Assembly: GCA_964482735.1 (NCBI GenBank)
Contig: CAYZYV010000004.1
Location: forward strand, 65,737-129,736
Length of the DNA: 64,000 bases
From: an uncultured Candidatus Saccharibacteria bacterium
Lineage (GTDB): Bacteria > Patescibacteriota > Minisyncoccia > Phycocordibacterales > UBA9973
Direction of reading: 5' to 3'
The position numbers were made by a program, and so were the translations under genes. Below are positions 2,896 through 62,654 of this stretch, piece by piece. The notes beneath the pieces are model-generated. The model saw nothing but the letters and a program-made list of their open reading frames with translations, was not told where the DNA came from and did not search any database. Each line of letters opens with the position of its first letter. Within the stretch, counting starts at the first letter, position 1.

Positions 2896-3411
2896 GTGGT
2901 ATCATTTATTGTAGTTATGGAAAAGACGTTAAAAGAAAAAACTGAAAATAGCACAAGTAGTAAAGAGGTTGTTCACACAATGCTTATATATGTGTATGTG
3001 ATTTTCTTTATTTCGATAGTTTTAGGAGTTTTGTTCGATTTAATTTTTAAACTAAATCTTTTGGCTGATTTTGAGTACTCACATTTTGGTTTTATTTTGA
3101 TCATATTTGGAACCCTTTTAATTTTCTTGGCTCAACAGGCATCTTCTAGGGCCAGTAAAATATCAAAGGAAAAAGAAAGCCTTGAAGGATTTATGTATGG
3201 ACCATACAAACACTTCAGACATCCAACTTATCTAGGAGTATTCTTTATGGTTTTAGGTTTTGGAATTGCAATAAAATCTATCTTCTCTATTTTGTTCATA
3301 ATGATCACTTATCTTATTGTGAAGCTAACTTTTGTAAGAAGAGAAGAAAATATTCTAGAGAAAAAATACGGAAAAATTTATTTAGACTATAAAAATAGGG
3401 TTAGGATGTAA
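2896..3411 (+). CDS. Isoprenylcysteine carboxyl methyltransferase / phospholipid methyltransferase family membrane protein
   Basis: Multi-TM protein with the C-terminal FRHPTYLGVFFMVLGFGI motif typical of ICMT/PEMT enzymes. Confidence 0.55.
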   Translation: MVSFIVVMEKTLKEKTENSTSSKEVVHTMLIYVYVIFFISIVLGVLFDLIFKLNLLADFEYSHFGFILIIFGTLLIFLAQQASSRASKISKEKESLEGFMYGPYKHFRHPTYLGVFFMVLGFGIAIKSIFSILFIMITYLIVKLTFVRREENILEKKYGKIYLDYKNRVRM

Positions 3412-5275: not shown

Positions 5276-5367
5276 ACCTTTTCTTTTTTAAAAGTATAAT
5301 CATTTTTAGATGTGTTGTCAAAATTGTCTTTATTTATAAGCATTATTATGTGTGGTATAATCTAAAA

Positions 5368-5865
5368 ATGACAAAACTAATTATATTAATAGTGGTTATA
5401 CTTGTAGGGTACTGGTTAGTAACTAAGTATTTGAATAAAAACAAGTTAGAGGTTAAAAAAGAATTACCATACGAAAAGAAACCATATCTTTTTGATGCAA
5501 ATTCTGAGTTTAGTTTATACAAAGTATTAGTCGAATTATACGGTGATAAGTATTATATATTTCCTCAAATAAATTATAGCCACCTTATACAACTCAAAAA
5601 ATCTAATTTTGAAGAAGAAAGGAGATATAGAAGTAAGATAGACAGAAAATCCGCTGATTTTGTATTTTGCGACAAAGACAAAATAATTCCACAACTAATA
5701 ATTGAACTAGATGGTTATGTCCATAATTTCAAAAGCAAACAAGCGAGAGACCAATTCATAGATGAAATAACTGGAATAGCAGATTTACCAATATTACACC
5801 TAAAAGCAAGTAACCTAGATAAGGAGTTTATAAAAAAAGAAATTGATACCAAATTAATAAAATAA
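5368..5865 (+). CDS. Membrane-anchored DUF2726-like PD-(D/E)xK nuclease-fold protein
   Basis: ATG at 5368 follows a tggtataat -10 box, and the long N-terminal extension in the ORF track was rejected. An N-terminal TM helix is followed by D...ELDGY..K resembling DUF2726. Confidence 0.45.
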   Translation: MTKLIILIVVILVGYWLVTKYLNKNKLEVKKELPYEKKPYLFDANSEFSLYKVLVELYGDKYYIFPQINYSHLIQLKKSNFEEERRYRSKIDRKSADFVFCDKDKIIPQLIIELDGYVHNFKSKQARDQFIDEITGIADLPILHLKASNLDKEFIKKEIDTKLIK

Positions 5866-7907: not shown

Positions 7908-8843
7908 TTAGTTAAATAGTTTTTGGTGCTTATTACAAAAGTGAGCACTTCGACCATTAACGACCTTTCTTATTATACCACCATCGCAGTCTTTTTTCTT
8001 GCAAGTTGTTTTGTTGAGACGGTAGACATTGTGATGATGTTGAAAGCCACCTCTTTCTCCGTCGATATTCCGATAATCTGACATAGAATCACCGCCAAAA
8101 TTAATTCCTTTCTTAAGCACGATCTTCATGTTTTTATAAAGAAGCCCAAGTTCCTTATTCGGAATTTTAGAAACAATAGATTCTGGGTGAATACCTGATA
8201 GCCAAAGCATTTCATCTGAATATATATTTCCAATACCAACAATAACTGATTGATCCATCAGAACGGTTTTAATTTTGCCTCTTGGCTTGAGATTGAGCCT
8301 GTCTTTGAAAAGTCCAAGGTCTGTTTTTTCTTCTAGAGGTTCTGGACCAATGTTTTTTAAGTGAATAGTATTCCCCATATTTTTAGTTTCAAAAAAAGTA
8401 ATTTTACCAAATTTTCTAGAATCACAGAATGCAAGATATTTACCGTTTGATAGGCAAAAAACAAAATGAATAAATCTGTTGTAAGGATCTATAAGAGGGG
8501 ATTTAGAATCTTTTGGTTCCCAAACAATCTTCCTCCCAACAATCTTTTTAATATATTTTCCATATAGTAAATGCCCGGTCATTTTTAAATGAATAAGAAT
8601 AGTATATCCACCCGAAACATTTATTAAAATGTTTTTTGCCCTTCTCTCTACCGATAAAACCTTCTTCCCGACAATCTTCTTCCTGAATTCTTTAAAAAAA
8701 TTCTCGTCTTTAATGGTGCCTTGAAAATGTTTAATTGGCTGGTTTTTCTTAGCTAGATCAGTCCAGACATCAGTAAAACGAAGCTCAAGTAAGACTTTCT
8801 TCAATCCATTTACTGTTGTTGTTACTTCAGGTAGCTCTGGCAT
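7908..8843 (-). CDS. fpg: Formamidopyrimidine-DNA glycosylase (Fpg/MutM)
   Basis: The true start is MPELPEV at 8843 (catalytic Pro2, Glu3). A C-terminal CxxC...CxxC zinc finger is present. The ORF-track N-terminal extension was rejected. Confidence 0.85.
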   Translation of the reverse strand: MPELPEVTTTVNGLKKVLLELRFTDVWTDLAKKNQPIKHFQGTIKDENFFKEFRKKIVGKKVLSVERRAKNILINVSGGYTILIHLKMTGHLLYGKYIKKIVGRKIVWEPKDSKSPLIDPYNRFIHFVFCLSNGKYLAFCDSRKFGKITFFETKNMGNTIHLKNIGPEPLEEKTDLGLFKDRLNLKPRGKIKTVLMDQSVIVGIGNIYSDEMLWLSGIHPESIVSKIPNKELGLLYKNMKIVLKKGINFGGDSMSDYRNIDGERGGFQHHHNVYRLNKTTCKKKDCDGGIIRKVVNGRSAHFCNKHQKLFN

Positions 8844-8844
8844 G

Positions 8845-8940
8845 TATATAATATAAATATAGGTTATTAAAATTAAAAATAGCACTTCGCGTCCCGTAGT
8901 AAATTTTAAATGCATTCGATTTAAAATTTTACCTCTGGGG
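8845..8940 (+). mobile_element. 96-nt hairpin insertion element flanked by 29-bp direct duplication of the fpg 5' terminus
   Basis: ttgttgttacttcaggtagctctggcatg occurs identically at 8816..8844 and 8941..8969. The core agcacttcgcgtcccgtagtaaa...ctctgggg is about 80 percent identical to 57025..57117. Confidence 0.55.
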
Positions 8941-9010
8941 TTGTTGTTACTTCAGGTAGCTCTGGCATGGCTGATTTTTAAGGAACGAAGTGACTATAAA
9001 AATCGCCAAA

Positions 9011-9807: not shown

Positions 9808-10620
9808 TTGATGAATACCAAAGGAGATTTCTGGACAAAAATATATTATAATAAAAAAGTGAAAAAGGAATCTCTAAAACCTAATAAAGCCAAAAAAGGA
9901 TTTACCCTCATTGAACTTCTTGTCGTCATCGCTATCATCGGAATACTTTCTGCTGTGGTTATTGCTTCGCTAAACAGTGCTCGAGAAAAGGGGAAGGTTG
10001 CAATGATCAAATCTACTCTCAAGAACATGCAGTCTCAAGCTGAATTAACTTACACAACAAACGGAGATTATTCTACTTTATATAACTCTTCTACCTATGA
10101 TTGTATTGGTTCATTAACTAAAATGGCAGAAAGTTTAACTAATCAAGGAGTAACGGTTAAATGCTATTCTCGTAACAGTTCGTCCCAAAACGATGTCTAC
10201 CTCCGTTTCGGTGCCACTGCTATCATATATAACACTAATAGTTTCAAAGCATGGTCTACAGACCAAAACGGAGTAGCAACTTGGGATCAAAAAGGGGTAG
10301 ACTCGACAGGTGCATATGTTGATGCAGATATTACCTCGGGTATGACATTAGCTATTTCAAACTCCGCTTGTGCTAAAGCAGGAGGAAGACTTCCATCTCT
10401 TGAACAATTGTTTACTCTTAGCAGGGCTTATTATACCGCTTCTGGAAATACATCTTACAAACCCACTAGTGTTGGTTTTAAAGCAAGTTATTACTGGTCT
10501 TCTGTGCTTTCTCCACTTCCATCTGATAATTCACAAGCATACTACGTTAACTTTGGTGCTGATACTAGTATTGGCACTAGTCCTGTTACAAATGGTGGTT
10601 ACGTTCGCTGTGTTAGATAA
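9808..10620 (+). CDS. Type IV pilin-like protein with C-terminal DGR-target-type lectin/FGE-like domain (paralog 1; no cognate TR in window)
   Basis: Prepilin motif KG-FTLIELLVVIAIIGILSAVV. The C-terminus GGRLPSLEQ...YYWSS...GGYVRCVR matches the tail of the DGR2 target. Confidence 0.7.
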   Translation: MMNTKGDFWTKIYYNKKVKKESLKPNKAKKGFTLIELLVVIAIIGILSAVVIASLNSAREKGKVAMIKSTLKNMQSQAELTYTTNGDYSTLYNSSTYDCIGSLTKMAESLTNQGVTVKCYSRNSSSQNDVYLRFGATAIIYNTNSFKAWSTDQNGVATWDQKGVDSTGAYVDADITSGMTLAISNSACAKAGGRLPSLEQLFTLSRAYYTASGNTSYKPTSVGFKASYYWSSVLSPLPSDNSQAYYVNFGADTSIGTSPVTNGGYVRCVR

Positions 10621-13230: not shown

Positions 13231-13279
13231 AAAACAGTAAGACCCAAATATCTTCATATCTGGGTCAAACTGTTTTATG
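13231..13279. terminator. Bidirectional terminator hairpin
   Basis: gtaaaacagtaa-gaccca-loop-tgggtc-aaactgtttta nested inverted repeats. Confidence 0.5.
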
Positions 13280-13280
13280 T

Positions 13281-13397
13281 GATCCCGGCAGGAATCGAAC
13301 CTGCATCATAACTTCCGCAAAGTTACGTCCTATCCCCGCCCGACTGGAACGACCACTAATCTTGTCCAGTCGTTCGGGCGGGCATTGAATGACAACG
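13281..13397 (-). pseudogene. Partial tRNA-Arg-like copy (D-arm to 3' end, lacks 5' acceptor strand) carrying a 48-nt GC hairpin insert in the D-loop
   Basis: Anticodon arm TAACT-TTGCGGA-AGTTA, T-arm GCAGG-TTCGATT-CCTGC, and 3' CGGGATC-A. Insert 13336..13383 ccgcccga...tcgttcgggcgggc. Confidence 0.5.
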
Positions 13398-13401
13398 CTT
13401 G

Positions 13402-13473
13402 TGCTCTCAGTAGGAATCGAACCTACATCATAACTTCCGCAAAGTTACGTTCTATCCATTGAACTATGAGAGC
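13402..13473 (-). tRNA. tRNA-Arg (anticodon GCG as read from the loop)
   Basis: Perfect cloverleaf on the minus strand: GCTCTCA-TA-GTTC-AATGGATA-GAAC-G-TAACT-TTGCGGA-AGTTA-TGAT-GTAGG-TTCGATT-CCTAC-TGAGAGC-A. Confidence 0.75.
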
Positions 13474-13706: not shown

Positions 13707-13783
13707 AAGTTACATCCTATTCCCGCCCGACTGGAACGACTACCAATCTCGTCCAGTCGTTCGGGCGGGCATTGAATGACTGG
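13700..13783 (-). repeat. Second partial tRNA-Arg-like fragment (D-arm to anticodon stem) with the same 48-nt hairpin insert
   Basis: agttacatcctattc + ccgcccgactggaacgactaccaatctcgtccagtcgttcgggcgggc + attgaatgac; the insert is at 13717..13764. Confidence 0.5.
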
Positions 13784-17244: not shown

Positions 17245-17345
17245 TTGTAAATTATACCTTAAATATATAATTTAAGGTATTTGAGTTTTCTGATACTTTA
17301 TTTCTTTGCGGGTCATGTGAGTTCAGTACCCACAATACTAATGTT
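17245..17345 (-). promoter_or_regulatory. Promoter/leader with near-perfect palindromic operator (accttaaatatataatttaaggt); paralog at 18156..18250
   Basis: A ~90-nt direct repeat lies upstream of two consecutive minus-strand genes and contains a TATAAT-like box overlapping a 23-bp palindrome. Confidence 0.45.
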
Positions 17346-18155: not shown

Positions 18156-18250
18156 ATATGTAAATTATACCATAAATATATAATTTGAGATACTTGAGTC
18201 TTCCGATACTTTGTTTTTATTGCGGGGATACTCGTGTTAGGACTTTTCAC
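18156..18250 (-). promoter_or_regulatory. Second copy of the palindromic-operator promoter/leader
   Basis: About 75 percent identical to 17245..17345, including the palindrome and the -10 region. Confidence 0.45.
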
Positions 18251-18451: not shown

Positions 18452-19771
18452 ATGGAAACATATACAACAGCTAGGATTAATAAGGAAATATTGATTCAAG
18501 CACCAAAAATTAAATATGTATTGTATGCTCGTAAATCAACCGAATCAGAAGAAAGACAAGTGCTTTCTATTGATTCACAAGTTAAAGAAATGTTACAACT
18601 TGCTGAACGAGATGGTTTAGAAGTGGTTGAGATTAGAAGAGAATCACATAGTGCTAAAGAATCAGGTCAAAGACCTGTATACAGAGAAATATTAGAAGAT
18701 ATACGACGAGGTAGGTTTAATGGAATACTAACATGGGCACCAGATAGACTTTCAAGAAATGCAGGTGATTTAGGAAGTATAGTTGATTTAATGGATCAAC
18801 AATTGCTTTTAGAAATAAGAACATATGGGCAACATTTTAAGAATTCACCAAATGAAAAGTTTCTGTTAATGATTCTCTGTTCTCAGGCAAAACTTGAGAA
18901 TGATAACAAAAGTGTAAACGTAAAACGTGGATTAAGAACAAGGTGTGAAATGGGTTTGCGACCAGGAGTAGCACCAACTGGATACTTGAATGAAAAAAGA
19001 ACAGATAGGAAATGCCAAGCAATATTAGACCCAGAACGAGCACCAACTATCAAAAAGATGTTTGAGAAAGTAGCCTATGAACACTGGAGTGGGAGAAAAT
19101 TATATAACTGGCTTCGATTTGATTTAAACTTCAGAACATCTAATGGAAAGAAACATCTAAGTTTAGGCAATATATACAAGATACTAGATAATCCTTTCTA
19201 TTATGGAGTATTTGAATATCCTAAAAAATCTGGTAATTGGTATACAGGACAACACGAACCGTTAATAACAAAAGAATTATTTAACTTAGTCCAAGATCAA
19301 ATCAAAAGTAATGTGCTTCGAATTGAAAACAAAGAATTTGCCTTCACAAAAATGATGACTTGTGGACTTTGTGGATCTGGAATATCAGCCGACGAGAAGT
19401 TTAAGAAATACAAGAATGGAACTATTACAAGATATGTATATTATGGTTGTACTAAAGCTAGAGGTACCGACTGTAAATGTGGTTATACCGAAGAAAAAAA
19501 TATTCTCAAACAATTTGAGGAGTTAATTGAAAAAATAGATCTCAACGAGATCCAAATAAAAGAAAAAATAAAAGCTGATGTTGAAAAGTTCTCTAAAATG
19601 CAAAATTTCTTTTTAGGGACAAAAGAAAAACCCAAAATATCAAATATTGATATTCGAGGATATGCTAGATATGTATTGAAGGAAGGGAGTGATGTTGAGA
19701 AAAGAGAATTGTTGGGGTGTTTGAAAAGCAGGATATTGTTGAACAATAAGAAAATATCACTTTTGAGATAA
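18452..19771 (+). CDS. Large serine recombinase (phage-type integrase)
   Basis: N-terminal resolvase catalytic motif VLYARKSTESEERQVLSIDSQ, a recombinase domain, and a zinc ribbon CGLCGS...YYGCTKARGTDCKCGY. Confidence 0.85.
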   Translation: METYTTARINKEILIQAPKIKYVLYARKSTESEERQVLSIDSQVKEMLQLAERDGLEVVEIRRESHSAKESGQRPVYREILEDIRRGRFNGILTWAPDRLSRNAGDLGSIVDLMDQQLLLEIRTYGQHFKNSPNEKFLLMILCSQAKLENDNKSVNVKRGLRTRCEMGLRPGVAPTGYLNEKRTDRKCQAILDPERAPTIKKMFEKVAYEHWSGRKLYNWLRFDLNFRTSNGKKHLSLGNIYKILDNPFYYGVFEYPKKSGNWYTGQHEPLITKELFNLVQDQIKSNVLRIENKEFAFTKMMTCGLCGSGISADEKFKKYKNGTITRYVYYGCTKARGTDCKCGYTEEKNILKQFEELIEKIDLNEIQIKEKIKADVEKFSKMQNFFLGTKEKPKISNIDIRGYARYVLKEGSDVEKRELLGCLKSRILLNNKKISLLR

Positions 19772-21925: not shown

Positions 21926-21935
21926 CACGACTCTG

Positions 21936-22022
21936 CGGAAGCGGTGAGATTCGAACTCACGAGGAGCTTTCACCCCTAACAGTTTTCAAGACTGTCTCGT
22001 TAGACCACTCCGACACGCTTCC
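21936..22022 (-). tRNA. tRNA-Ser (anticodon TGA)
   Basis: Acceptor GGAAGCG/CGCTTCC, anticodon loop CTTGAAA, long variable arm, T-arm GTGAG-TTCGAAT-CTCAC, discriminator G. Confidence 0.8.
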
Positions 22023-28509: not shown

Positions 28510-29184
28510 ATGGTAAAGAGAGGACCAAAGCCAAAAGCAATAATAAGTACAAAATGGACTTCTGGTTTAGCCTATGCGATTGGGTTGCTTGCAACAGACG
28601 GTTACTTATCAAAAGATGGACTTCTTGTAGATTTGACCTCCAAAGACAAAGAACAGTTAATGAATTTTTCTAAATGTGTAGGTTTTAATTTTAAAATAGG
28701 GGAAAAAATAAACGGTAAAGGTAATAAGAATTTAAGAATTCAATTTAAAAATAGGATTTTCTATGATTTTCTTTTGTCTATTGGATTATCACCAAAAAAG
28801 TCTTTGACTATTAGTAAGGTAAAAGTACCAGATAAGTATTTCTTCGACTTTTTGAGGGGGTGTTTTGATGGTGATGGGTCATTTTATTCTTATTGGGACA
28901 AAAGGTGGTGCTCGAGTTATATGTTTTATCTAGAATTTACTTCTGGTAGTATTGAATACATTAATTGGCTAAGGGAAGAATTAAGAAAAAGACTTGGAGT
29001 AAAAGGACATATTACACATAGTAAACTAGGAAATACCCACAATTTAAAATACGCAAAAAAAGAATCCCTAGAAGTAATTAAAAATATGTATTATAATCCA
29101 AAGGTTGTTTGCTTGTCTCGGAAAAAAGAAAAAATAAAAAAGGTTCTTAAACAAGAAAAACAACAACAAAAAAATAATAAATAA
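28510..29184 (+). CDS. LAGLIDADG homing endonuclease (two-motif, free-standing) immediately upstream of tRNA-Leu
   Basis: Two LAGLIDADG-like motifs, AIGLLATDGYL and FLRGCFDGDGSF, and a basic C-terminus. Confidence 0.65.
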   Translation: MVKRGPKPKAIISTKWTSGLAYAIGLLATDGYLSKDGLLVDLTSKDKEQLMNFSKCVGFNFKIGEKINGKGNKNLRIQFKNRIFYDFLLSIGLSPKKSLTISKVKVPDKYFFDFLRGCFDGDGSFYSYWDKRWCSSYMFYLEFTSGSIEYINWLREELRKRLGVKGHITHSKLGNTHNLKYAKKESLEVIKNMYYNPKVVCLSRKKEKIKKVLKQEKQQQKNNK

Positions 29185-29188
29185 CAAT

Positions 29189-29270
29189 GCCCGGGTGGTG
29201 AAATTGGTAAACATGCTAGTATGAGGTGCTAGTGCCGCAAGGCTTGGAGGTTCAAGTCCTCTCCCGGGCA
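29189..29270 (+). tRNA. tRNA-Leu (anticodon GAG)
   Basis: Acceptor GCCCGGG/CCCGGGC, anticodon arm CTAGT-ATGAGGT-GCTAG, long variable arm, T-arm GGAGG-TTCAAGT-CCTCT. Confidence 0.75.
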
Positions 29271-29357
29271 CAAAGTGAAGCTTTGTGCAAAAACAGAAAC
29301 ATGTTATGTCTCTGTTTTTTATTTACTAAAATCTTTTAAGAATGTTATAATAAAATC

Positions 29358-33309: not shown

Positions 33310-33909
33310 ATGAAATACAATGATTTTACCCTAGGACAAATTGAAGCAGTTTTAAACAAACTAGGTGGAATAGAAGGCGTAATGGACTTTCTTTCTGGCA
33401 AAACTATTGTGAAGGTTCCATCGGATGAAAAAACCTTGTTCAATGTATGGAAAACTATTAAACTCGGCAATTACAAAAATGCCGATGAGTTTCGTAAGGC
33501 ACTCAAAAAAAATGGTTTCAAAACCGGCGACTGGGCAAACGACATCCTCGACAAACCCGCATTTACAGTAGCTGGAGCAGAAGAAGAAATCCAGTTGGTG
33601 AATGTTTCAGTAGCTGACCTTGGTTTCAAAAACGGTGCCACTTACAAGGGTATCTGTGCTAAAGCCAAAGAACTTGGCTTGGAACTTTGTCCCAATGAAG
33701 TCGGTCCACAATTGCGTTTGCAATACAAAGACCAGCCCAAGGGCGAACACCTGTGTATTGCAATGGAACCAATTACCGACTCGTTTGGCAACCTCAGCAT
33801 CTTCCACGTTGGACACGATGACGATGTTTTGTGGCTCTATGGCTACTATGGCTATTCTGTCCCTTTCTGGAGTGCTTACTACCGTTTTGTTTTCCGTCTT
33901 CGCAAGTAG
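33310..33909 (+). CDS. DGR1 variable (target) protein; C-terminal variable region
   Basis: The last 136 nt (VR1, 33772..33907) match TR1 with about 17 mismatches, all but one of which lie at TR adenines. Confidence 0.75.
   Translation: MKYNDFTLGQIEAVLNKLGGIEGVMDFLSGKTIVKVPSDEKTLFNVWKTIKLGNYKNADEFRKALKKNGFKTGDWANDILDKPAFTVAGAEEEIQLVNVSVADLGFKNGATYKGICAKAKELGLELCPNEVGPQLRLQYKDQPKGEHLCIAMEPITDSFGNLSIFHVGHDDDVLWLYGYYGYSVPFWSAYYRFVFRLRK
33772..33907 (+). repeat. DGR1 variable repeat (VR1)
   Basis: Aligned to TR1 34267..34402. TR A maps to VR G/C/T at about 16 sites, including AAC-type codons. Confidence 0.8.
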
Positions 33910-34266: not shown

Positions 34267-34402
34267 ATTACCGACTCGGATGGCAACCTCAACATCTTCA
34301 ACGTTGAACACGATGACGATGATTTGTGGCTCAATGGCAACAATGGCAATTCTGTCAATTTCTGGAATGCTAACAACCGTTTTGTTTTCCGTCTTCGCAA
34401 AT
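34267..34402 (+). repeat. DGR1 template repeat (TR1)
   Basis: Noncoding 136-nt copy of VR1 that keeps adenines where VR1 varies. Confidence 0.8.
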
Positions 34403-34800: not shown

Positions 34801-35805
34801 ATGTCTCGTATACAATTTAGTCATACATATCAATATATCATTTCTACTGAAAATCTCCTCCTTGCTTGGAAGGAGTTTTTGAAAGGCAAAAAATCAAGGA
34901 AAGATGTTTTAGAGTTTGAAAGAAACTTGATGACTAATATCTTAAAACTTCACAGCGAACTCTCAAATAAAACATATAAACATTCTGATTACCAAGCATT
35001 TGATATATCTGACCCTAAACCACGAAGCATACATAAAGCAAAAGTGCGGGACAGATTACTTCATCACGCACTCTATCGCGAACTTTATCCATTTTTTGAT
35101 AGAACATTTATAGCCGACTCATATTCTTGTAGGAAAAATAAGGGAACGCATAAAGCAATGCGGAGGTTTCGGGTGTTTTCAAATAAAGTATCAAAAAACA
35201 ATACAAAAACTTGCTGGGTTTTGAAGGGTGATATACGAAAGTTTTTTGGGTCAATAGACCAGGAAATACTTGTTGAAATAATTAAAGAATATATTTATGA
35301 TAAAGATATAATTTCGTTATTATTTGAAATTATTGTAAGTTTCCAATCTACAAAAAAAGATGTTGGGTTACCTCTTGGCAATTTAACATCACAAATACTT
35401 GTGAACATTTATATGAATGAGTTTGACCAGTTTGTAAAACATAAACTAAAAGCAAAATACTATATTCGTTATGCCGATGATTTTGTTATTATGTCTGACA
35501 AAAAAGAATGGCTTGAAAACTTATTGCCACAAGTAGCAATTTTTCTTGAGATACGGCTCAAATTATTGCTTCATCCAGACAAGGTTTTTATAAAAACTCT
35601 TGTCTCTGGAGTTGATTTTCTCGGGTGGGTCCATTTTCCCGACCATCGGATAGTAAGAACCATAACTAAACGCAGAATGTTAAAACATATTAGACAAAGG
35701 GAAGGCAAAAAAGAAACGGTCCAGTCCTGTCTTGGGCTCTTAAGCCACGGTAATGCGAAGAAACTTTCTAACTCAATAACTATGAAATATGTAATTGAAA
35801 AATAA
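34801..35805 (+). CDS. DGR reverse transcriptase (RT1)
   Basis: RT motifs with the DGR-typical LPLGNLTSQ (SQ rather than QG) and YADD (RYADDFVI). Only 334 aa, with no maturase or endonuclease domains. Confidence 0.85.
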   Translation: MSRIQFSHTYQYIISTENLLLAWKEFLKGKKSRKDVLEFERNLMTNILKLHSELSNKTYKHSDYQAFDISDPKPRSIHKAKVRDRLLHHALYRELYPFFDRTFIADSYSCRKNKGTHKAMRRFRVFSNKVSKNNTKTCWVLKGDIRKFFGSIDQEILVEIIKEYIYDKDIISLLFEIIVSFQSTKKDVGLPLGNLTSQILVNIYMNEFDQFVKHKLKAKYYIRYADDFVIMSDKKEWLENLLPQVAIFLEIRLKLLLHPDKVFIKTLVSGVDFLGWVHFPDHRIVRTITKRRMLKHIRQREGKKETVQSCLGLLSHGNAKKLSNSITMKYVIEK

Positions 35806-42591: not shown

Positions 42592-42645
42592 AACAGCCGA
42601 GGTCGGACCTCGTACGAGGTCCGACCTCGGCTGTTATCCACAGGT
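42592..42645. repeat. GC-rich REP-like perfect palindrome (44 bp) plus conserved atccacaggt tail; second copy at 62584..62654
   Basis: aacagccgaggtcggacctcgtacgaggtccgacctcggctgtt is a perfect inverted repeat. Confidence 0.6.
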
Positions 42646-42804: not shown

Positions 42805-43593
42805 GTGAAAAACAAACTCTTAAAATCAGATAATAAAACTACAGGGTTCACTTTAATTGAACTCTTAGTCGTTATCGCAATCATTGGAATTTTATCAGCC
42901 GTAGTTGTCGCTTCGCTAAACAGTGCAAGAGAGAAAGGAAAGATTGCTTCTATTAAATCCACCTTAAAACAACTATATAACCAAGCAGCCATCAATCAAG
43001 CAGAATATGGTAGTTTTGCAAACTCTAATACATCATATTCAGATTTAACTTGTACAGGCCCAGGAGGTAATCTAGCTAAAATAGCTCAACCACTCATTGA
43101 TCAAGGAATTATAGTTAAATGCTTTAGTTTTAATAGTCCGGCATCTGGAGATTTGTCCCTTCGCTTTGCTGCAACCGCTCTTATATATGATACAAATGAA
43201 CTCAAAGCATGGTCAGTAGATGAAAACGGTGTAGTTAAATGGGATACTCATGGAGTTAATACTGATGGGACAACAAGATCAACAGATATAACCATGGCAT
43301 GGAAGGACCTAAATGATATCACTATAGCTATGAACGCTTGTGCGAAAAATGGTGGTCGTCTTCCTTCTGTGGAACAATTTCGAACCCTGTTTCATTCATG
43401 GTACTCATCTACTGGCAATGTGTCATATCTTCCAATACCAACAGAAGGTTCTTTTTCAAATGGTTACTACTGGTCATCAACTTCTGTACCGCTTTGGCCA
43501 GAGACTAGATCATATTCTTTGATCACAGAGAGCTCAAATATAGGATTCTCTGGTTCGTTGAGTTCTGGTTATTATGTCCGTTGTGTTAGATAA
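42805..43593 (+). CDS. Type IV pilin-like protein with C-terminal lectin/FGE-like DGR-target-type domain (paralog 2; no cognate TR found)
   Basis: GFTLIELLVVIAIIGILSAVV prepilin motif; C-terminal GGRLPSVEQ...YYWSS...GYYVRCVR. Confidence 0.7.
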   Translation: MKNKLLKSDNKTTGFTLIELLVVIAIIGILSAVVVASLNSAREKGKIASIKSTLKQLYNQAAINQAEYGSFANSNTSYSDLTCTGPGGNLAKIAQPLIDQGIIVKCFSFNSPASGDLSLRFAATALIYDTNELKAWSVDENGVVKWDTHGVNTDGTTRSTDITMAWKDLNDITIAMNACAKNGGRLPSVEQFRTLFHSWYSSTGNVSYLPIPTEGSFSNGYYWSSTSVPLWPETRSYSLITESSNIGFSGSLSSGYYVRCVR

Positions 43594-45756: not shown

Positions 45757-46536
45757 TTGTATAATAAAACTATGATTAAGAATTATAAAAACACTAATAA
45801 TGCCTTTACTCTCATCGAACTCCTCGTCGTCGTCGCAATCATCGGAATACTCTCCTCAGTAGTCATCACATCACTAAACTCTGCAAGAGAAAAGAGCAAG
45901 ATTGCTTCTATTAAATCCACCTTAAAACAACTATACAACCAAGCTGCCATCAATCAAGTAGAAAATGGTAGTTTTACTGGATCTAATCCTTCATATTCAA
46001 ACTTAACCTGTTCTGGCAACTTAGCTCCAATAATTAAACCACTAGAAGACCAGGGAATAATAGTTAAATGCTTTAGTTTCTATGGAAGTCCCTATGGAGG
46101 AAATTATACAGGAGACGATTATAACAGATTCGCCGCCACGGCCCTCATCTACGACACAGGAGAACTCAAAGCATGGTCTGTAGATGAAAACGGTGTAGTT
46201 AAATGGGATACACAAGGAGTAAACTCAACAGGAGCTTTTGTTACCCCTGACATTACAGCCTCATGGACTAATGCTCAAAACAGATGTGCTTTATCTGGTG
46301 GACGTCTCCCTTCTATTGAACAATTGAGAACTCTATCTCATGCATGGTATTCTAAAGCTAATACTGATGGAGATGTAGACCCTTGGGCACCTCTTGGTTT
46401 CGTAGCAAGCATCTACTGGTCTTCTACCCCCGTTCCGTCGTCGCCTACTACGCTCGCTTACGGCCAGATCATGGCCTATGGTAGCTTGACCTCCTACAGT
46501 CAGACTCTCGGGTACTATGTTCGCTGTGTTAGGTAG
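45757..46536 (+). CDS. DGR2 variable (target) protein: type IV pilin-like N-terminus plus C-terminal lectin/FGE-like domain carrying VR2
   Basis: AFTLIELLVVVAIIGILSSVV prepilin motif, and a C-terminal ...YWSSTPVPSSPTTLAYGQIMAYGSLTSYSQTLGYYVRCVR encoded by VR2. Confidence 0.8.
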   Translation: MYNKTMIKNYKNTNNAFTLIELLVVVAIIGILSSVVITSLNSAREKSKIASIKSTLKQLYNQAAINQVENGSFTGSNPSYSNLTCSGNLAPIIKPLEDQGIIVKCFSFYGSPYGGNYTGDDYNRFAATALIYDTGELKAWSVDENGVVKWDTQGVNSTGAFVTPDITASWTNAQNRCALSGGRLPSIEQLRTLSHAWYSKANTDGDVDPWAPLGFVASIYWSSTPVPSSPTTLAYGQIMAYGSLTSYSQTLGYYVRCVR

Positions 46537-46556
46537 TAGTGTGTTCGCCTAGAATT
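46391..46556 (+). repeat. DGR2 variable repeat (VR2), which extends 20 nt past the stop codon (IMH-like region)
   Basis: The 166-nt alignment to TR2 has 19 mismatches, and every one of them is at a TR adenine. Confidence 0.85.
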
Positions 46557-46635: not shown

Positions 46636-47076
46636 TTGTCGTTTATGTCTATTTATTCTAATCTTCCAATATACAACAATACATTTTCATTGTTAAAAGA
46701 ACTATACATAAGAGTTCCTAAATTTAGTAAAGAATATAAATATCTTCTAGGGGAGAAAATGATTAAATGCTGTGTGGACAGTCTTGTGTTAATTAATCAA
46801 ATTAGTTCAAGTAAAGAAAGGGTCGAAAGAATAAATCTTTTGATGAGATTAGAAGATAACATGAATGTACTAATGGTGCATGTCCGAATAGCTAATGAAC
46901 TCAATCAATTAGTTAAAAAGGATAATTATTTCTTTTTATCTCAAAAAATAATAGAAATTTTAAATCAAGCAGAAAATTGGAAAAAGTTTCTTCAGAAGAA
47001 GAAATGTTCCCAGAATTGCACCTCTGATGGTAGTGCAAGTGTGGATAAAAAAATTCCTCTCCCCACCCCTTGTTAA
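46636..47076 (+). CDS. avd: DGR accessory variability determinant (Avd-like) of DGR2
   Basis: 146-aa helical protein located between the target gene and TR2-RT2. The C-terminal IEILNQAENW aligns with the bAvd EVGRILGSW region. Confidence 0.6.
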   Translation: MSFMSIYSNLPIYNNTFSLLKELYIRVPKFSKEYKYLLGEKMIKCCVDSLVLINQISSSKERVERINLLMRLEDNMNVLMVHVRIANELNQLVKKDNYFFLSQKIIEILNQAENWKKFLQKKKCSQNCTSDGSASVDKKIPLPTPC

Positions 47077-47135: not shown

Positions 47136-47301
47136 CTCTTGGTTTCGTAGCAAACAACTACTGGTCTTCTACCCCCGTTCCGTCGTCGCCTACTACGCTC
47201 GCTTACAACCAGAACATGAACAATGGTAACTTGAACAACAACAGTCAGACTAACGGGAACTATGTTCGCTGTGTTAGGTAGAAGTGTGTTCGCCTAGAAT
47301 T
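47136..47301 (+). repeat. DGR2 template repeat (TR2)
   Basis: Intergenic between avd2 and RT2. It is rich in AAC codons (NNQNMNNGNLNNNSQTNGN) that appear mutated in VR2. Confidence 0.85.
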
Positions 47302-47337: not shown

Positions 47338-48411
47338 ATGACAATTTTCACAATTAAAAATATATATAAAGCATATAATGATTGCTTAAAACACAAGAAA
47401 AACACAACTAATGCTTTAAAATTTGAGCTAAACAGAGAGAAGAATTTGTATTCATTACTCAAAGATTTACAAAACAGAACTTACAAAATATCAAGACATA
47501 TATGCTTCGTGGTAACAGTGCCAACGGCTAGGGAAATATTTGCAGCTGATTTTCGAGATAGAATAATTCACCATGTACTATATAATGAGATAAGAGATTT
47601 ATTTGAAAGTAATTTCATTGAAGAATCATATGCTAATAGATTAGGCAAAGGGACTCATATGGCTGTTCGAAAATTAAGATATCATATAGCAAGAGGAGGA
47701 AAGGATGGTAGAAGATTATATTATTTAAAGATGGATATCAAGGGATTTTTCAGAAATATAGACAAAAATATTCTATACGAAGAAATGAAAATGATTATTG
47801 TGAGAAGTGACAAAGATAAATCGTGGAAAGACGAAATACTGTGGCTAACAAAAATGATTATTTTTCATGATCCAACATCTAATTATGTTTTCAAAGGGGC
47901 GAATAATACAAGAGGCGTTGTCCCTAAGCACAAATCTTTGTTTTATGGAGATAGAAATAAAGGTTTACCAATAGGGAATTTAACTAGCCAATTTTTTGCA
48001 AATATTTATTTAGACAAACTTGATCATTTTGTAAAAGAGGAATTAAAATTTTATCGCTATCTTAGATATGTTGATGATTTTATTATCCTAGATGAAGACA
48101 AAGAAAGGTTAGAAGAAACGATAAAAAAAATTGATCTATTTCTTAACCAGAAGTTAAATTTAAAATTGGCCCCCGATAAGATATTTCTAAGGCAGGTTAA
48201 TCATGGAATAGACTTTCTTGGTTATTATATTAAACCGACTCATACTCTAGTAAGAAGAAAGGTGGTTCGGAGGTTTAAAGACAAAATGTATAAAAATAAA
48301 AACAAAGAAGATGGCTTATACTCTATAAAATTTCTGTCTGTTATAAGATCTTATTTTGGACATTTCGAGCATGCAAATAGTTATAATTTGAGGAAAAAAT
48401 TAATAGGTTAG
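47338..48411 (+). CDS. DGR reverse transcriptase (RT2)
   Basis: 357 aa, with GLPIGNLTSQ and YVDD (RYVDDFIIL) motifs, and about 40 percent identical to RT1 across the finger/palm region. Confidence 0.85.
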   Translation: MTIFTIKNIYKAYNDCLKHKKNTTNALKFELNREKNLYSLLKDLQNRTYKISRHICFVVTVPTAREIFAADFRDRIIHHVLYNEIRDLFESNFIEESYANRLGKGTHMAVRKLRYHIARGGKDGRRLYYLKMDIKGFFRNIDKNILYEEMKMIIVRSDKDKSWKDEILWLTKMIIFHDPTSNYVFKGANNTRGVVPKHKSLFYGDRNKGLPIGNLTSQFFANIYLDKLDHFVKEELKFYRYLRYVDDFIILDEDKERLEETIKKIDLFLNQKLNLKLAPDKIFLRQVNHGIDFLGYYIKPTHTLVRRKVVRRFKDKMYKNKNKEDGLYSIKFLSVIRSYFGHFEHANSYNLRKKLIG

Positions 48412-49103: not shown

Positions 49104-50396
49104 ATGTCGAAAAAGGAAATTATTTTAATAATCTTTTTGGCAATAATAGCGGGAGTTCGCTATTTGTTTTTTATCCCCCAAGCTCCTAATTTTGATTATT
49201 TAGTAGGGGAAAATATAGGATTCGTTGGGCAAATTGTAGAAAATCCAGATGAGAGATTGAACAGTCAGCAATTAAAAGTAAAAATTAATAATCAAAAAAT
49301 TTATTTACTTGTTTCAACTAGCAAAGCAACAGAATACAAGTATGGTGATAAGATTTATGCAGAAGGGAAGCTCTCAAAACCAGAAAATTTTATCACTGCC
49401 CAAGGAAAAGAATTTAATTATATAAAATATCTTGCAAATCAAGATATTTATTTTTTGCTTAAATATCCCAAAATAGAAATCATTACCCGAGATAACGGGA
49501 ATTCGGTTTATGCTTTTCTGTATAAAATAAAAAATTCTTTTATAAAAAGTATAAACAAAGTTATCGACTTACCAGAGAGTAGTTTGGCCGGAGGTTTGGT
49601 TTTAGGATTAAAAGGCGGTTTTGATGAAGAAATGAGAAATAACCTTATAGAAACAGGTACTATCCACATTGTGGCGTTGTCTGGTTATAACGTTTCAATT
49701 GTAGCAGAGGGTGTGATGAAGGCTTTTAAGCAAGTATTTTCTCAAAACATCTCTATCGTTTTAGGTATGGTGACTATTTTGCTTTTTGTAATTTTAACAG
49801 GAGCAGAAGCGACTGCTGTTAGAGCAGGAATTATGGCAACCATTATGCTCGTAGGACGAATGACTGGTCGAAAATATTTAGCTGGTCGTGGACTGGTGAT
49901 TGCTGCACTTTTAATGATCACATATGATCCGAGAATTGTGACCGACATGTCTTTTCAGTTATCTTTTATTGCTACAGCGGGAGTTTTATTTTTACCAACA
50001 AAAATTTTGAAATATTTTTCTTTCTTACCGGTTCGCTTTGGAGTCAGAGAAATGGTGGTGTCGACAGTTTCAGCAACTATCTCTGTTTTGCCTATTGTTT
50101 TATATAGCACAGGAGTGTTATCGATAGTTTCTATTCTTGTTAATTTGTTAATACTTTTATTTATTCCTTATGCTATGCTTTTTGTTTTTATCGCTGGAGC
50201 TTTGGGACTAATTTCTAAGGCGATAGCTATACCTTTTGGTTTTATCGCATTTATTATTCTTCACTATATTTTATCTGCAATAAATATCTTTGGCTCGTTT
50301 AGATTTTCGAGTTTTACAATTCAATCCTTCCCACTTATTATTGTTATTTTATTATATGCAGGTATTCTTTGGTGGGTTTTTATAAAAAAGAAATAA
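49104..50396 (+). CDS. comEC: DNA internalization competence protein ComEC/Rec2, N-terminal DUF4131 plus competence channel domain
   Basis: 430-aa polytopic membrane protein with a ComEC-type core (HIVALSGYNVSIV). Confidence 0.7.
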   Translation: MSKKEIILIIFLAIIAGVRYLFFIPQAPNFDYLVGENIGFVGQIVENPDERLNSQQLKVKINNQKIYLLVSTSKATEYKYGDKIYAEGKLSKPENFITAQGKEFNYIKYLANQDIYFLLKYPKIEIITRDNGNSVYAFLYKIKNSFIKSINKVIDLPESSLAGGLVLGLKGGFDEEMRNNLIETGTIHIVALSGYNVSIVAEGVMKAFKQVFSQNISIVLGMVTILLFVILTGAEATAVRAGIMATIMLVGRMTGRKYLAGRGLVIAALLMITYDPRIVTDMSFQLSFIATAGVLFLPTKILKYFSFLPVRFGVREMVVSTVSATISVLPIVLYSTGVLSIVSILVNLLILLFIPYAMLFVFIAGALGLISKAIAIPFGFIAFIILHYILSAINIFGSFRFSSFTIQSFPLIIVILLYAGILWWVFIKKK

Positions 50397-54178: not shown

Positions 54179-54670
54179 TTGACTATGAAGTATTATCCTC
54201 TTCTCTTGGCTTTGTGCCAGGATATAGAAATTAATTTGTTAGAAGATGTTGAAACCATCTTTAGAAACAAAGAAGAAAGGATCGTTCTCGGTCCAAAGAT
54301 CAATATCAAGGATACCATCTTTGGTGAAGATGCAACTGAGATTGAAAAAATTTCAAGTGTAGTGAGTAATATGTTTCTTCGAGCAAGAAATTATGTAGGG
54401 CCGTCGGGTGGAGAAAAAGGACATTTGGAAAATGTTAAAAACGAAATCATTACCCAAATTGCTGAAACTTATCAAGATGTTATCATTTATCTTTTTAATA
54501 ATCAGGTTTGTCCGGATTCAAGACTTATAGTTGACCAGGGTTTTTTTTACAAAACCATTGGTCAGGAAGAGTTTGAAGCTAAACTCAAAAAGGCGAATCA
54601 AAAAATTCGTGATAAGGCCAAGTTCTACCATGAGGCTTGTGCAGCCTATAGAAAAATAGCAAACCAATAA
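54179..54670 (+). CDS. Hypothetical protein inserted between rpsG and fusA
   Basis: 163-aa ORF, and a terminator hairpin at about 54695..54745. Confidence 0.4.
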   Translation: MTMKYYPLLLALCQDIEINLLEDVETIFRNKEERIVLGPKINIKDTIFGEDATEIEKISSVVSNMFLRARNYVGPSGGEKGHLENVKNEIITQIAETYQDVIIYLFNNQVCPDSRLIVDQGFFYKTIGQEEFEAKLKKANQKIRDKAKFYHEACAAYRKIANQ

Positions 54671-54882: not shown

Positions 54883-57024
54883 ATGGAAAGAGATTATCCC
54901 TTAGAAAAAGTAAGAAATTTTGGAATTATTGCTCACATTGATGCTGGTAAAACCACTACAAGTGAAAGAGTTCTTTACTATACAGGAATGTCCCACAAGG
55001 TTGGTGAAGTTCACGATGGTGAAGCAACTACAGACTGGATGGAGCAAGAGCGTGAAAGAGGTATTACAATTACTTCTGCTGCTGTTACGTGTTTTTGGAC
55101 ACCTACATATGCAAATGGTGATAAAAATAAAAAGCATCGTTTTAATATTATTGACACTCCAGGTCACATTGACTTTACTGTTGAAGTTAAGAGATCACTT
55201 CGTGTGCTAGACGGAGCGGTTGTTGTTTTCGATGGAGTAGCTGGAGTAGAACCTCAATCAGAAACAAACTGGCGTTATGCTGACGAAGCTATGGTTCCTC
55301 GAATTTGTTTTGTTAACAAAATGGATAGAACAGGAGCTTCTTTTGAACACTCATACAAAACAATTTTGGATAGATTAAACAAAAATGCAGTCAGGATGCA
55401 ATTACCTATCGGGGCAGAAGAAAATTTTGAAGGGGTTGTTGATTTGCTTAAAATGAAAGCCTATTATTTTGAAGGTAATATGGGGGATCAAGTTGTTGAA
55501 AAAGAAATCCCAGAAAATCTAAAAGCGGACGCAGAGAAATATCATGGTGAATTAATCGAAAAAATTGTTGAACAAGATGATACTTTAATGTCTGATTATC
55601 TTGAAGGAAAAATTCCTAGTATCGAAGTTTTAAAAGCAACAATGAGAAAGGCTGTTATCGCAAACAAAATCTTTCCAGTGTTTACAGGAACTGCCTTGAA
55701 AAACAAAGGGGTTCAACTAGTTCTAGACGCTGTTATCGATTATCTTCCAAGCCCAATTGATATTCCTGCAATCAAAGGAGTTAACCCAGATAACGGAGAT
55801 GAAATGGAAAGACATGCTTCAGATTCAGAACCATTTTCAGCTCTTGCTTTCAAAGTTGCTACTGACCCGTTCGTTGGACAATTAATTTTCTTCCGTGTTT
55901 ATTCCGGATCTCTTTCTGCTGGAAGTTATGTTTATAATCCGAGAACAAGAAACAAAGAAAGAATTGGACGTATCTTGAGAATGCATGCTAATGACCGAGA
56001 AGAAGTCAAGAAAGTTTTTGCTGGAGAAATAGCAGCCGCTGTTGGATTAAAAGACACTATTACTTCAGACACTCTCTGTGATGAGGCTAGTCCTATAGAA
56101 CTATATAAAATTATATTCCCAGAACCAGTTATTCAACTTAGAGTTGAACCAAAGACAAAGGCTGACCAAGAAAAAATGGGTATGGCTTTAAATCGTTTAG
56201 CACAAGAAGATCCAACCTTTAGAGTCTCGACAGATAGTGAGACTAATGAGACAATCATTTCTGGAATGGGAGAACTTCACCTTGAAATTATTGTTGATCG
56301 TATGAAGAGAGAATTTAGTGTTGAAACTAATGTTGGAAATCCTCAGGTAGCCTACAGAGAAACTATTACTGGTACCGCAGACGCAGAAGGTAAATACATC
56401 AAACAATCTGGAGGAAGAGGTAACTACGGTCACGTTAAGATTAAAGTTAAGCCTATGGACTTTTCTATTAATCCAGAAGACCTTCCAAGAAATGTTAAGA
56501 GAGATAAAGAATTTGAATTCATTAACAATATCAAAGGAGGTGTTATTCCACTAGAATACATTCCAGCTTGTGAAAAAGGATTCAAAGAAGGATTGGATAG
56601 AGGAATACTAGCAGGGTTCAAGATGGTTAATGTTTCAGTAGATCTATGGGATGGTTCTTACCACGAAGTTGACTCTAACGAAATGGCTTTCAAGATTGCA
56701 GCTTCTATGGCTGTTCAAGATGCATGTAAGATGGCTCGTCCAGTTATTCTTGAGCCAATGATGAAGGTTGAAGTTGTAACCCCAGAGAAATTCATGGGAG
56801 ATGTTACTGGAAGTTTATCTTCAAAGAGAGGAATCATTGAAGGAATGGAAGCAAGAGGGTTGAATCAAGCCATCAAGGCAGTTGTTCCACTATCTGAGAT
56901 GTTTGGATATATGACAACCCTTCGTTCAATGACCGAAGGACGTGCTGGATTCGTAATGGAATTCTTAAGATACGATATAGTTCCACAAAACGTCGCTACA
57001 GCTATCATTGAAAAAAGGAAATAG
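54883..57024 (+). CDS. fusA: Elongation factor G
   Basis: GTPase G1-G4 motifs ([18 protein letters not shown]); 713 aa. Confidence 0.9.
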
Positions 57025-57117
57025 AATATAGTTTGTTTAAGAGATGTGCTTTAAAAAAACACTTCCCGCCCCGTAGTAAAATTTAAGAGCATTCGTTTTA
57101 AATTTTTACTTCTGGGG
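57025..57117 (+). mobile_element. 93-nt hairpin insertion element flanked by 32-bp direct duplication of the fusA 3' terminus (including the stop codon)
   Basis: tcgctacagctatcattgaaaaaaggaaatag is identical at 56993..57024 and 57118..57149. The core acttcccgccccgtagtaaaattt...ttcgtttt...acttctgggg is related to 8845..8940. Confidence 0.55.
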
Positions 57118-57232
57118 TCGCTACAGCTATCATTGAAAAAAGGAAATAGTATACTTAAAATTAAACCCCCTTTTGGCTTTCGCCAAAAGGGGGTTTAATG
57201 ATATAATATAAACCTATTAATCAAAAAACATT

Positions 57233-62583: not shown

Positions 62584-62654
62584 AACAGCCGAGGTCTTTC
62601 CTCGTACGAGGTCGGACCTAGTACGAGGTCCGACCTCGGCTGTTATCCACAGGT
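62584..62654. repeat. Second copy of the GC-rich REP-like palindrome, with an internal expansion
   Basis: aacagccgaggtc-[tttcctcgtacgaggtcggacctagtacgaggtccgac]-ctcggctgttatccacagg. Confidence 0.6.

Follow-up and report, generated by a model that had tools for sequence, protein, structure and literature searches.

The window analysed here, a 64,000-nt stretch of contig CAYZYV010000004.1 (assembly GCA_964482735.1), belongs to a Paceibacteria-type genome of the candidate phyla radiation (CPR). It carries two copies of a short hairpin-forming element, one at the end of fusA, the gene for elongation factor G (EF-G), and one at the start of fpg, and at both places the terminus of the gene is present twice. 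At fusA, GTCGCTACAGCTATCATTGAAAAAAGGAAATAG (33 nt) occurs exactly at 56992-57024 and at 57117-57149, 125 nt apart from start to start, and the match reaches 37 nt if one mismatch is admitted. A first-pass annotation of the window had reported a 32-nt duplication of the fusA end at 56993..57024 and 57118..57149, and its coordinates are correct; the additional left G of the 33-nt repeat is at the same time the last G of the motif CTGGGG, with which the insert of 92-93 nt between the two copies ends. The same annotation placed the insertion at the fusA stop codon, which is a valid placement but one of about 33 equivalent ones, as the junction could also sit 32 nt inside fusA. At fpg the insert (8844-8940) lies at the start of the gene, between the copies of a 28-31 nt repeat (8814/6-8843/4 and 8939/41-8968/9) that contains the ATG and the first codons (MPELPEVTT), and the mechanically called open reading frame (ORF; 7908..8915) overruns the true start into the element.

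The two inserts had been described as relatives of one another, and indeed they share a gap-free module of 58 nt, both in plus-strand orientation and both with CTGGGG directly against the outer copy of the repeat (Table 1). In the following we will refer to this module as M, to the terminus copy attached to the gene as T, to the spacer between T and M as V, and to the outer terminus copy as T'; T and V together form the arm. Read with CTGGGG at the right, every interpretable copy has the order gene body, T, V, M, T', native flank. T is the second copy of the terminus, attached to the gene and used by it, and T' reaches as far as the start or stop codon, with 0-4 nt beyond it. The base directly after CTGGGG, which opens T', is a thymine in 24 of 24 distinct copies.

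This layout is by no means confined to the window. A 17-mer from the module has two matches in the window at up to three mismatches, against 0.01 expected, and 30 further copies of the same layout occur elsewhere, which rules out chance. When sequences were scanned for the exact pattern, a Candidatus Paceibacteria metagenome-assembled genome (MAG) gave one copy, 27 metagenome contigs gave 28 and viral contigs none; a covariance model based on 24 distinct copies retrieved every one of these, together with one further full copy and a number of shorter and longer relatives. More than 30 copies at 16 interpretable gene ends are thereby known from Paceibacteria metagenomes and MAGs (loci outside the window are given by L numbers), so that the possibility of only two copies sharing a terminator-like motif fails, and the single architecture at conserved gene ends, each left intact, that had been proposed from two cases holds for 16. 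All targets are housekeeping genes. Thirteen are gene starts (AtpG, an Xth-like nuclease, a TypA/BipA-like GTPase, ClpB/C, TsaD at two positions, RecO, EF-P, S20, NusB, ClpP, Fpg and, by motif only, UvrB), where the repeat ends 0-3 nt upstream of the ATG; the three gene ends are those of EF-G and of two unnamed ORFs in L002 and L014, and the stop-codon case at fusA therefore represents the minority. The ORF lies on the arm side in 16 of 16 cases, and neither a purely intergenic repeat nor an ORF on the other side was found among the interpretable loci. L005 and L014 each possess two copies in opposite orientation, 4 kb apart, which shows that orientation tracks the gene end and led us to reject a bias towards one replication strand; a rule based on reading frame was likewise rejected, since the ORFs of the orphans run into the hairpin in two or more different frames.

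The repeats all reach a start or stop codon, and their visible length varies from 8 to about 65 nt, while the distance between the starts of T and T' at the same loci is 121-128 nt, mostly 124-126. The deviations follow insertions and deletions in the hairpin and the arm stays at about 67 nt, so that the invariant quantity is the sum of T and V, within a unit of about 125 nt. In the window the sums are 32+35+58 at fusA and 28+39+58 at fpg; at the other extreme, in L002 and L014, T measures about 63-65 nt, so that hardly any V is left and the repeat extends over the full arm. Between loci M keeps 75-96% identity; the arms are private. V is AT-rich and specific to each target, and a search for its origin with blastn-short over the window and all loci returned AT-rich chance hits only. 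As for V being the remnant of donor arms, comparison in register between targets gives a weak signal only: identity is 0.41 against about 0.37, shifts of -1 to +1 have about twice the usual number of matches of 7 nt or more, and there are two 11-mers. The idea that V is a palimpsest of old gene ends is disfavoured by its base composition, which is far more AT-rich than coding sequence.

These dimensions bear on the most conventional explanation, namely that V and M together transpose with a target-site duplication of variable length, and that the constant sum and the coincidence with ORF ends result from selection alone. Such an element would account for the exact identity of T and T' at fusA, fpg, xth, efp and rpsT, and for its polymorphic presence or absence. 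We consider it unlikely nevertheless: element and duplication together are constant within 2 nt over a range of T from 8 to 65, which selection cannot yield; V, not being conserved between targets, does not belong to a defined element; on its outer side the repeat stops 0-4 nt from a start or stop codon at every locus, without any intergenic or reversed case; and orphan copies do not decay neutrally. The first-pass annotation came close to this picture; the repeat it described is real, but not an ordinary target-site duplication of variable length, as repeat plus spacer are constant at about 67 nt.

The hairpin of M is well supported. In the alignment of 24 copies 97.8% of the cells are paired, seven of the eight pairs of the distal stem show double (compensatory) changes, and 0 of 500 shuffles reached the observed covariation, showing the hairpin to be under selection; when the partners are shifted by one column the pairing drops to 62-66%. 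The proximal stem has eleven pairs, seven of them invariant and four differing in one of the 24 copies each, and includes CCCC/GGGG and a GTAG; the stem base is invariant, and the 3' end of M reads CTGGGG. The apparent invariance of the loop GCATTCG reflects ascertainment, because this motif was required by the search patterns. A second type of hairpin (type B), with another distal stem and loop, occurs at fpg in L040 and L042. Searches of the window against Rfam 15 gave only tRNAs at gathering score and no family match for the module, and around fusA the sub-threshold hits concern the terminator only. We regard M as a non-autonomous hairpin repeat of 58 nt that has to be mobilised in trans.

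Both terminus copies are subject to constraint at the protein level. Across 15 loci, 38 of the 50 codons that differ between T and T' differ synonymously (76%) and 12 non-synonymously, against an expectation of 20% for random changes (binomial p=3e-17), and the differences include switches within six-fold serine codons (TCT/AGT and AGT/TCG). Neutral decay of the orphan would yield about one third synonymous differences even if the working copy accepted silent changes only; the native terminus has thus been functional until recently, or else functional alleles keep overwriting it. The ORFs in use are intact and the orphans differ from them mainly synonymously, yet orphans can decay, being truncated in L019 and unrecognisable in L055 and L061. 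Constraint on both copies, together with the fixed spacing and the short ORF that is opened by the orphan start and stops inside the hairpin (e.g. ...TPEVKF*), might suggest that nothing moves at all and that the structure regulates the gene in cis, for instance as a leader containing a short upstream ORF or as a translational-bypass cassette, the repeat itself having a function; an assembly artefact belongs to the same class of explanations. Of all the readings considered here we give this one the least credence. The same module lies at 16 unrelated gene ends, at starts and at stops and in either orientation to transcription, close relatives carry empty, decayed or doubled alleles, the orphan is deleted or decayed in the three loci just named, and the same structure is found in JGI, ENA, NCBI and Logan assemblies.

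Table 1. Position of the two units in the window, of related or accompanying motifs at other loci, and of further features of the window.
Feature	Position	Strand	Basis or remark
fusA (EF-G), functional gene, ends in left repeat copy	54883..57024	+	713-aa ORF
fusA T, working terminus (last 9 sense codons, last two bases of the preceding codon, TAG); first 32 nt of the 67-nt arm	56993..57024	+	Exact repeat; begins with thymine, as at every locus
fusA V, private AT-rich spacer, 35 nt (T 32 + V 35 = 67)	57025..57059	+	Unrelated to native downstream flank
fusA M, conserved 58-nt hairpin module, CACTTCCCGCCCCGTAG...TTACTTCTGGGG	57060..57117	+	Covariation; covariance model score 87.5 bits
fusA T', native terminus, now orphan, contiguous with native terminator	57118..57149	+	Empty allele L032: fusA...T runs straight into the same flank
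Native fusA terminator hairpin (flank), outside the element	57160..57199	+	18-nt perfect inverted repeat; present in empty alleles L032 and L044
fpg, functional gene, true start ATG 8843-8841 (MPELPEVTTT...)	7908..8843	-	Pfam Fapy_DNA_glyco and H2TH on identical protein
fpg T, working start (ATG, 8 full codons, one base; minus-strand reading)	8816..8843	+	Repeat
fpg V, private AT-rich spacer, 39 nt (T 28 + V 39 = 67)	8844..8882	+	Conserved upstream of fpg in L040 and L055
fpg M, 58-nt hairpin module	8883..8940	+	84.8 bits (covariance model)
fpg T', orphaned native start, contiguous with native upstream region and ruvA	8941..8968	+	Repeat
Mini relatives of the hairpin	L005 4358-4407 (= L014 4381-4430); L028 3304-3353; L004 right of module (~3051-3080); L048 ~695-729
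Start-upstream motifs	L001 2944-2980; L005/L014 right of clpP orphan; right flanks of L008, L010, L020, L023
Diversity-generating retroelement 1	Repeats 33772-33905 / 34267-34400; reverse transcriptase 34801-35805		Variable/template-type repeat pair, ~134 nt
Diversity-generating retroelement 2	Repeats 46391-46556 / 47136-47301; bAvd 46636-47076; reverse transcriptase 47338-48411		Variable/template-type repeat pair, ~166 nt
Three paralogous pilin-like (N_methyl) proteins with Lcl_C (C-type-lectin-like) ends	9808-10620, 42805-43593, 45757-46536
Large serine recombinase (Resolvase + Recombinase domains)	18452-19771

The history of the fusA unit can be followed among strains and sister species. 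It is present on three JGI contigs, and Pfam EF-G domains are recorded on the identical fusA gene in L029, whereas the Logan contig L032 lacks exactly those 125 nt. Presence or absence is therefore polymorphic on one and the same haplotype: of the 28 single-nucleotide polymorphisms (SNPs) in fusA between L032 and the window, 27 are common to the filled alleles L029 and L030. Several other Logan contigs are broken at the fusA repeat, as expected for filled alleles. Among sister species, the site is empty at 94% and at 75% FKBP identity and filled at 79%, there at the same position and again with a 35-nt spacer, of which 23 of 35 positions are identical to that of the window in register. The loop of M in this 79% relative has itself received a mini-hairpin of 35 nt, which likewise sits 5' of a thymine. 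Between the two filled species T differs at about 6 synonymous sites, and within the two genomes T and T' show 0 and 1 differences. Of the 27 SNPs that separate the window from L029, L030 and L032, 24 are clustered within 410 nt (56007-56416), which looks like a recombination tract imported into fusA.

At fpg, strains with an identical RuvA protein possess either one unit (the window, L039, L041 and L043) or two units in tandem, of 127 and 126 nt (L040 and L042). The tandem arms are about 90-97% alike (36 of 40 positions in V, 27 of 28 in T) and the distal stem-loops are entirely different, the kind of array that would be expected if a new hairpin inserted with a 67-nt duplication. Two units are likewise present in L028. 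The window unit combines the left portion of unit 1 with the right portion of unit 2, and could thus be derived from the array by one unequal crossover inside M. In more distant relatives the unit is found in various states of decay: at 81% RuvA identity the hairpin is intact and the orphan decayed, at 93% the spacer is conserved and both hairpin and orphan are decayed, and at 83% fpg lies directly behind a homologue of the orphan-side flank of the window, which identifies this flank as the native upstream region of fpg. In L058, which has no intact unit beside fpg, a homologue of this flank immediately precedes the gene. Gene calls run past the fpg start into the unit or the flank and give 335, 328 and 325 aa instead of 311 (window ORF, L058 and L061). 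Part of the native upstream region, at 8970-9010 in the window (GATTTTTATAGTCACTTCGTTCC..AAAAATC, facing the end of ruvA) and at ~1605-1655 in L058, looks like a decayed and internally deleted module, and the intergenic DNA near fpg may consist of layered remnants of older units. The two insertions that the first-pass annotation had regarded as independent do share one architecture; they are, however, not recent, as both the fusA and the fpg unit occur in sister species too, pristine or decayed, and are by this comparison old.

Taking these observations together, we favour a model, to which we assign a probability of roughly 40%, in which a hairpin mobilised in trans inserts with a fixed target duplication of about 67 nt, persists only where this stretch spans an ORF end, and is later remodelled. 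The 3' end of M would be joined 5' of a thymine, and a second cut would be made on the other strand at a fixed distance of about 67 nt; repair would then duplicate these 67 nt on both sides of M. In a compact genome such an insertion would survive only if the 67-nt stretch spans the terminus of an ORF, because one complete gene end then stays attached to the gene. Tandem arrays would arise when new hairpins go into an occupied site and copy the arm in full, unequal crossover would delete or add units and so generate alleles with 0, 1 or 2 of them, and each flank could recombine independently with the alleles of other strains, including empty ones. As a consequence of this remodelling V would come to be unlike the native flank, T would often equal T', and where the two differ the differences would resemble those between alleles. 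The steps of remodelling are each partly shown: strains close in kinship carry 0, 1 or 2 units, allelic recombination is visible as the clustered SNP tract in fusA, and DNA uptake is supported by ComEC, encoded at 49104-50396. That M alone is the mobile part we infer from its conservation across targets with private arms, from the two hairpin types on one arm lineage and from mini-hairpins that insert alone. A further point in support comes from tsaD, which has received two independent insertions, one with T=17 (L016) and one with T=35 (L011, L024 and L025); L011 and L016 have native upstream regions of 78% identity and unrelated spacers.

Several points weigh against the model of a fixed duplication. 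No virgin single-unit locus, with V equal to the native flank, was seen; V is no more similar to its own flank beyond T' than to those of other loci (17.4 against 16.9 in the cross-locus control), even where T and T' are identical. The model consequently requires every sampled unit to be old or remodelled, an age that was checked for fusA and fpg. We know of no precedent for a fixed 67-nt stagger among known transposases, and no candidate enzyme was identified. A symmetric duplication by itself leaves the arm-side position of the ORF in 16 of 16 cases unexplained and needs an extra assumption; the motif TGnTAATAT at the arm-facing end of M is promoter-like, and a promoter there would, as a conjecture, explain the rule of orientation. 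The mini relatives, of 30-50 nt, were inserted without the 67-nt duplication, and the two-unit arrays could instead have arisen by unequal crossover and replacement of the distal stem. Finally, the empty fusA allele is a single Logan contig (L032), assembled with a k-mer shorter than the repeat, for which a collapse artefact is possible.

Some of these difficulties vanish if it is not M but the whole 125-nt T-V-M that is mobile or exchangeable, being inserted 5' of T without any target duplication. Such a cassette would bring a replacement gene end with its private flank, as a miniature of the phages and islands that insert into a gene and supply a substitute terminus, and would pass between related genomes either through site-specific cleavage or, once DNA has been taken up, through homologous recombination; ComEC is again present. 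The constant unit length follows directly, the ORF lies on the arm side by construction, V is naturally unrelated to the native flank, and T and T' differ like orthologous functional alleles, as in the serine switches mentioned above. At clpP, L005 and L023 have 81-89% identity over T-V-M-T', against a background level (~59%) in gene body and outer flank, and the second fpg unit of L040 with its homologous arm would fit as well. On the other hand, the cassette leaves the origin of arms for at least 16 gene ends, the two tsaD positions included, unexplained, and a founding mechanism would still be needed. The fusA T tracks the T' of its own species and not that of the other filled species, which indicates that T was re-copied or converted locally and not carried along. 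Moreover, M is far more conserved across targets than the arms, and the left end of the unit offers no conserved sequence for an enzyme to cut. Insertion of M with a fixed duplication therefore remains our preferred account, and exchange of whole cassettes its main rival, possible but doubtful.

Since two diversity-generating retroelements (DGRs) lie in the window, one of them with bAvd (Table 1; repeat pairs 89-90% identical), a reverse transcriptase (RT) might be thought to copy hairpin RNA together with the end of a (leaderless) mRNA, the cDNA then being integrated. The first-pass annotation had raised an RT-dependent route, and the repeats at the 13 gene starts do end where a leaderless mRNA would begin. 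This route finds no support in the data and we hold it to be very improbable: neither a module nor a related hairpin occurs near either DGR, the differences between T and T' concern all base types and are not adenine-specific, there is neither a poly-A tail nor a series of 5' truncations, and the constant 125 nt is not predicted. In addition, the gene-end cases (fusA, L002 and L014) have the hairpin in the opposite direction relative to transcription, so that one mechanism at the RNA level cannot cover both. With differences at all bases, no module at the DGRs, and fusA and fpg at 9-22 kb from the nearest RT, the repeats were rejected as the template and variable repeats of a DGR.

Other loci provided a number of additional observations. 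Mini hairpin relatives of 30-50 nt with CCCCG..GGGG are inserted without any arm. Two are in frame with their host genes, clpP (which gains DPEGKITSYGAG) and a tgt-like gene (DPEGKNTSYGA); a third lies within an orphan repeat, and a fourth is the one in the hairpin loop of the sister-species fusA module. L024 harbours, at 5347-5440 on the minus strand, a relative of 94 nt that shares the stem base but is greatly extended in its distal part and has no recognisable repeat; it stands back-to-back with the tsaD unit, and a cytidylate-kinase-like gene follows about 30 nt downstream. The clpP reading frame of L005 stops after 25 codons. Two other short motifs, a CTAG-rich repeat (CTAGTGACTAGAAAC...) and TAATTATTAATT(C), recur just upstream of native start codons in unrelated genes and may be promoters or further small repeats.

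In the remainder of the window, a 163-aa ORF without Pfam match (54179-54670) is located between rpsG and fusA in an otherwise conserved str operon. The three pilin-like Lcl_C genes resemble DGR targets; one of them adjoins ruvA, with no RT nearby. The region of the large serine recombinase contains two tandem tRNA-Arg(GCG) genes at 13279-13473, one of them scoring weakly, an ART-PolyVal protein and direct repeats of 74 nt (13320-13393 / 13707-13780) and 58 nt (17246-17303 / 18159-18216); it ends near a tRNA-Ser (21935-22022) and is probably an integrated element. We see nothing that connects the RTs or this recombinase with the module. A LAGLIDADG-like ORF (28510-29184) ends 5 nt before a tRNA-Leu(GAG) at 29189-29271, and a GC-rich palindromic repeat, CGAGGTCGGACCTCGTACGAGGTCCGACCTCGGCTGTTATCCACAGGT, is present at 42598-42645 and, partly in tandem, at 62590-62654; it is unrelated to the hairpin studied here.

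The units have practical consequences for annotation and assembly, as they cause contig breaks and wrong starts such as those of fpg (325-335 aa against 311), and the orphan gene ends are useful markers of strain history. In biological terms, a selfish repeat would be living inside essential genes of very small genomes, where it rewires promoters and 3' ends and creates units that vary in number between 0, 1 and 2. In the literature we found no description of a repeat that duplicates gene termini in a constant 125-nt unit, and there is a substantial chance that the integration chemistry is new. Going one step further, we tentatively suggest, at somewhat lower confidence than the model above, a mode of transposition hitherto undescribed in the CPR, in which a gene-less 58-nt hairpin is inserted by a ruler-type enzyme with strand transfers about 67 nt apart and the resulting units turn over as 125 nt. 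If this were true, the target duplication would be the longest fixed one known, the element would be able to occupy the initial or final 3-21 codons of essential genes without being lethal, the duplicated gene ends being kept functional on both sides, and a sizeable share of the intergenic DNA in these minimal genomes would be decayed units. A real fixed duplication of about 67 nt would also imply an integration enzyme with a molecular ruler outside CRISPR-Cas.

Among known systems, miniature inverted-repeat transposable elements (MITEs) and insertion sequences (IS) with long duplications resemble the unit as small non-autonomous repeats or by the direct repeats of target DNA around them. MITEs, however, possess terminal inverted repeats, of which M shows none in 24 aligned copies (the left side is private and AT-rich, the right reads ...TTACTTCTGGGG), and their target duplications are short and fixed (2-10 bp), whereas the repeat described here ranges from 8 to about 65 nt and is complementary to the length of the spacer. 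This also sets it apart from the free-running duplications of IS1634/IS1549, reportedly IS families with long and variable ones. The ends of IS200/IS605, their miniature derivatives (PATEs) and attC sites share with M an imperfect hairpin of single-strand type, with a conserved foot, bulges and mismatches, and a fixed cleavage spot beside it, and the G^T junction of the module recalls the G^TT of attC. IS200/IS605 elements carry two hairpins, one per end, and integrate 3' of a fixed tetra- or pentanucleotide without any duplication, in contrast to the one hairpin and the long repeats of the unit; attC sites have RYYYAAC/GTTRRRY cores and stand in integron arrays, while the module has CTGGGG^T followed by variable sequence and no GTTRRRY. 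Neither group is associated with duplicated gene ends, and no tyrosine recombinase or HUH/Y1 transposase was found among the window ORFs of at least 130 aa.

To our knowledge, Cas1-type integration is the only prokaryotic case in which a ruler sets strand transfers tens of nucleotides apart, and casposons are said to target the 3' end of the archaeal EF-2 gene. The long duplication of fixed length is a point of likeness, as is EF-G, the bacterial homologue of EF-2, as a target. Casposons, however, have terminal inverted repeats, duplications of 14-15 bp and a cas1 gene, and CRISPR repeats measure 23-50 bp and are sequence-specific; the unit has no terminal inverted repeats, its duplication would be about 67 nt and its target sequence is arbitrary, and no Cas1 domain was found among the window ORFs of at least 130 aa. 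Replacement gene ends are reportedly supplied by phage 21 and e14 in icd, by SXT in prfC and by islands in the 3' ends of tRNA and tmRNA genes. Like the unit, these elements insert within a conserved gene, provide a substitute terminus and leave an orphaned native terminus that differs mainly synonymously. They are kilobases long, with their own integrase and one att core, and differ in this from a unit of 125 nt that has no ORF and occupies at least 16 gene ends sharing a single thymine.

Repetitive extragenic palindromic sequences (REPs) and REPINs, which are moved by REP-associated tyrosine transposases (RAYTs), are similar to M in being short, non-coding, palindromic and conserved in structure, mobilised in trans and situated near or overlapping ORF ends (PMC3733652, PMC2817692). 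REPs are defined as palindromes of 20-40 nt with an unpaired GTAG (or CGTC) tag at one end (PMC3733652), and a GTAG is also present, and invariant, at the 5' side of the M stem. Both REPs and Rickettsia palindromic elements (RPEs) have been reported in frame inside genes, as have the mini relatives of M here. There are differences too: the GTAG of REPs is an unpaired end tag, whereas that of M is internal and largely paired (G-C, T.T, A-T, G-C) behind the CCCC/GGGG clamp, and REPs are 20-40 nt long, GC-rich, present in more than 100 copies per genome and mostly downstream of genes, while the hairpin of M has about 45-50 nt and is AT-rich. In the paper on GTAG REPs the word 'duplication' is absent from the text. 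No gene for a RAYT (Y1 HUH) was found among the window ORFs of at least 130 aa. Taken together, the element fails the defining features of MITEs, of IS200/IS605 miniatures, of integron attC sites and cassettes, of DGR repeat pairs, of casposons and Cas1-type integration, and of self-encoded integrative elements; by analogy it is most like a trans-mobilised hairpin of the REP/REPIN type, and like the gene-targeting integrative elements in its substitute terminus.

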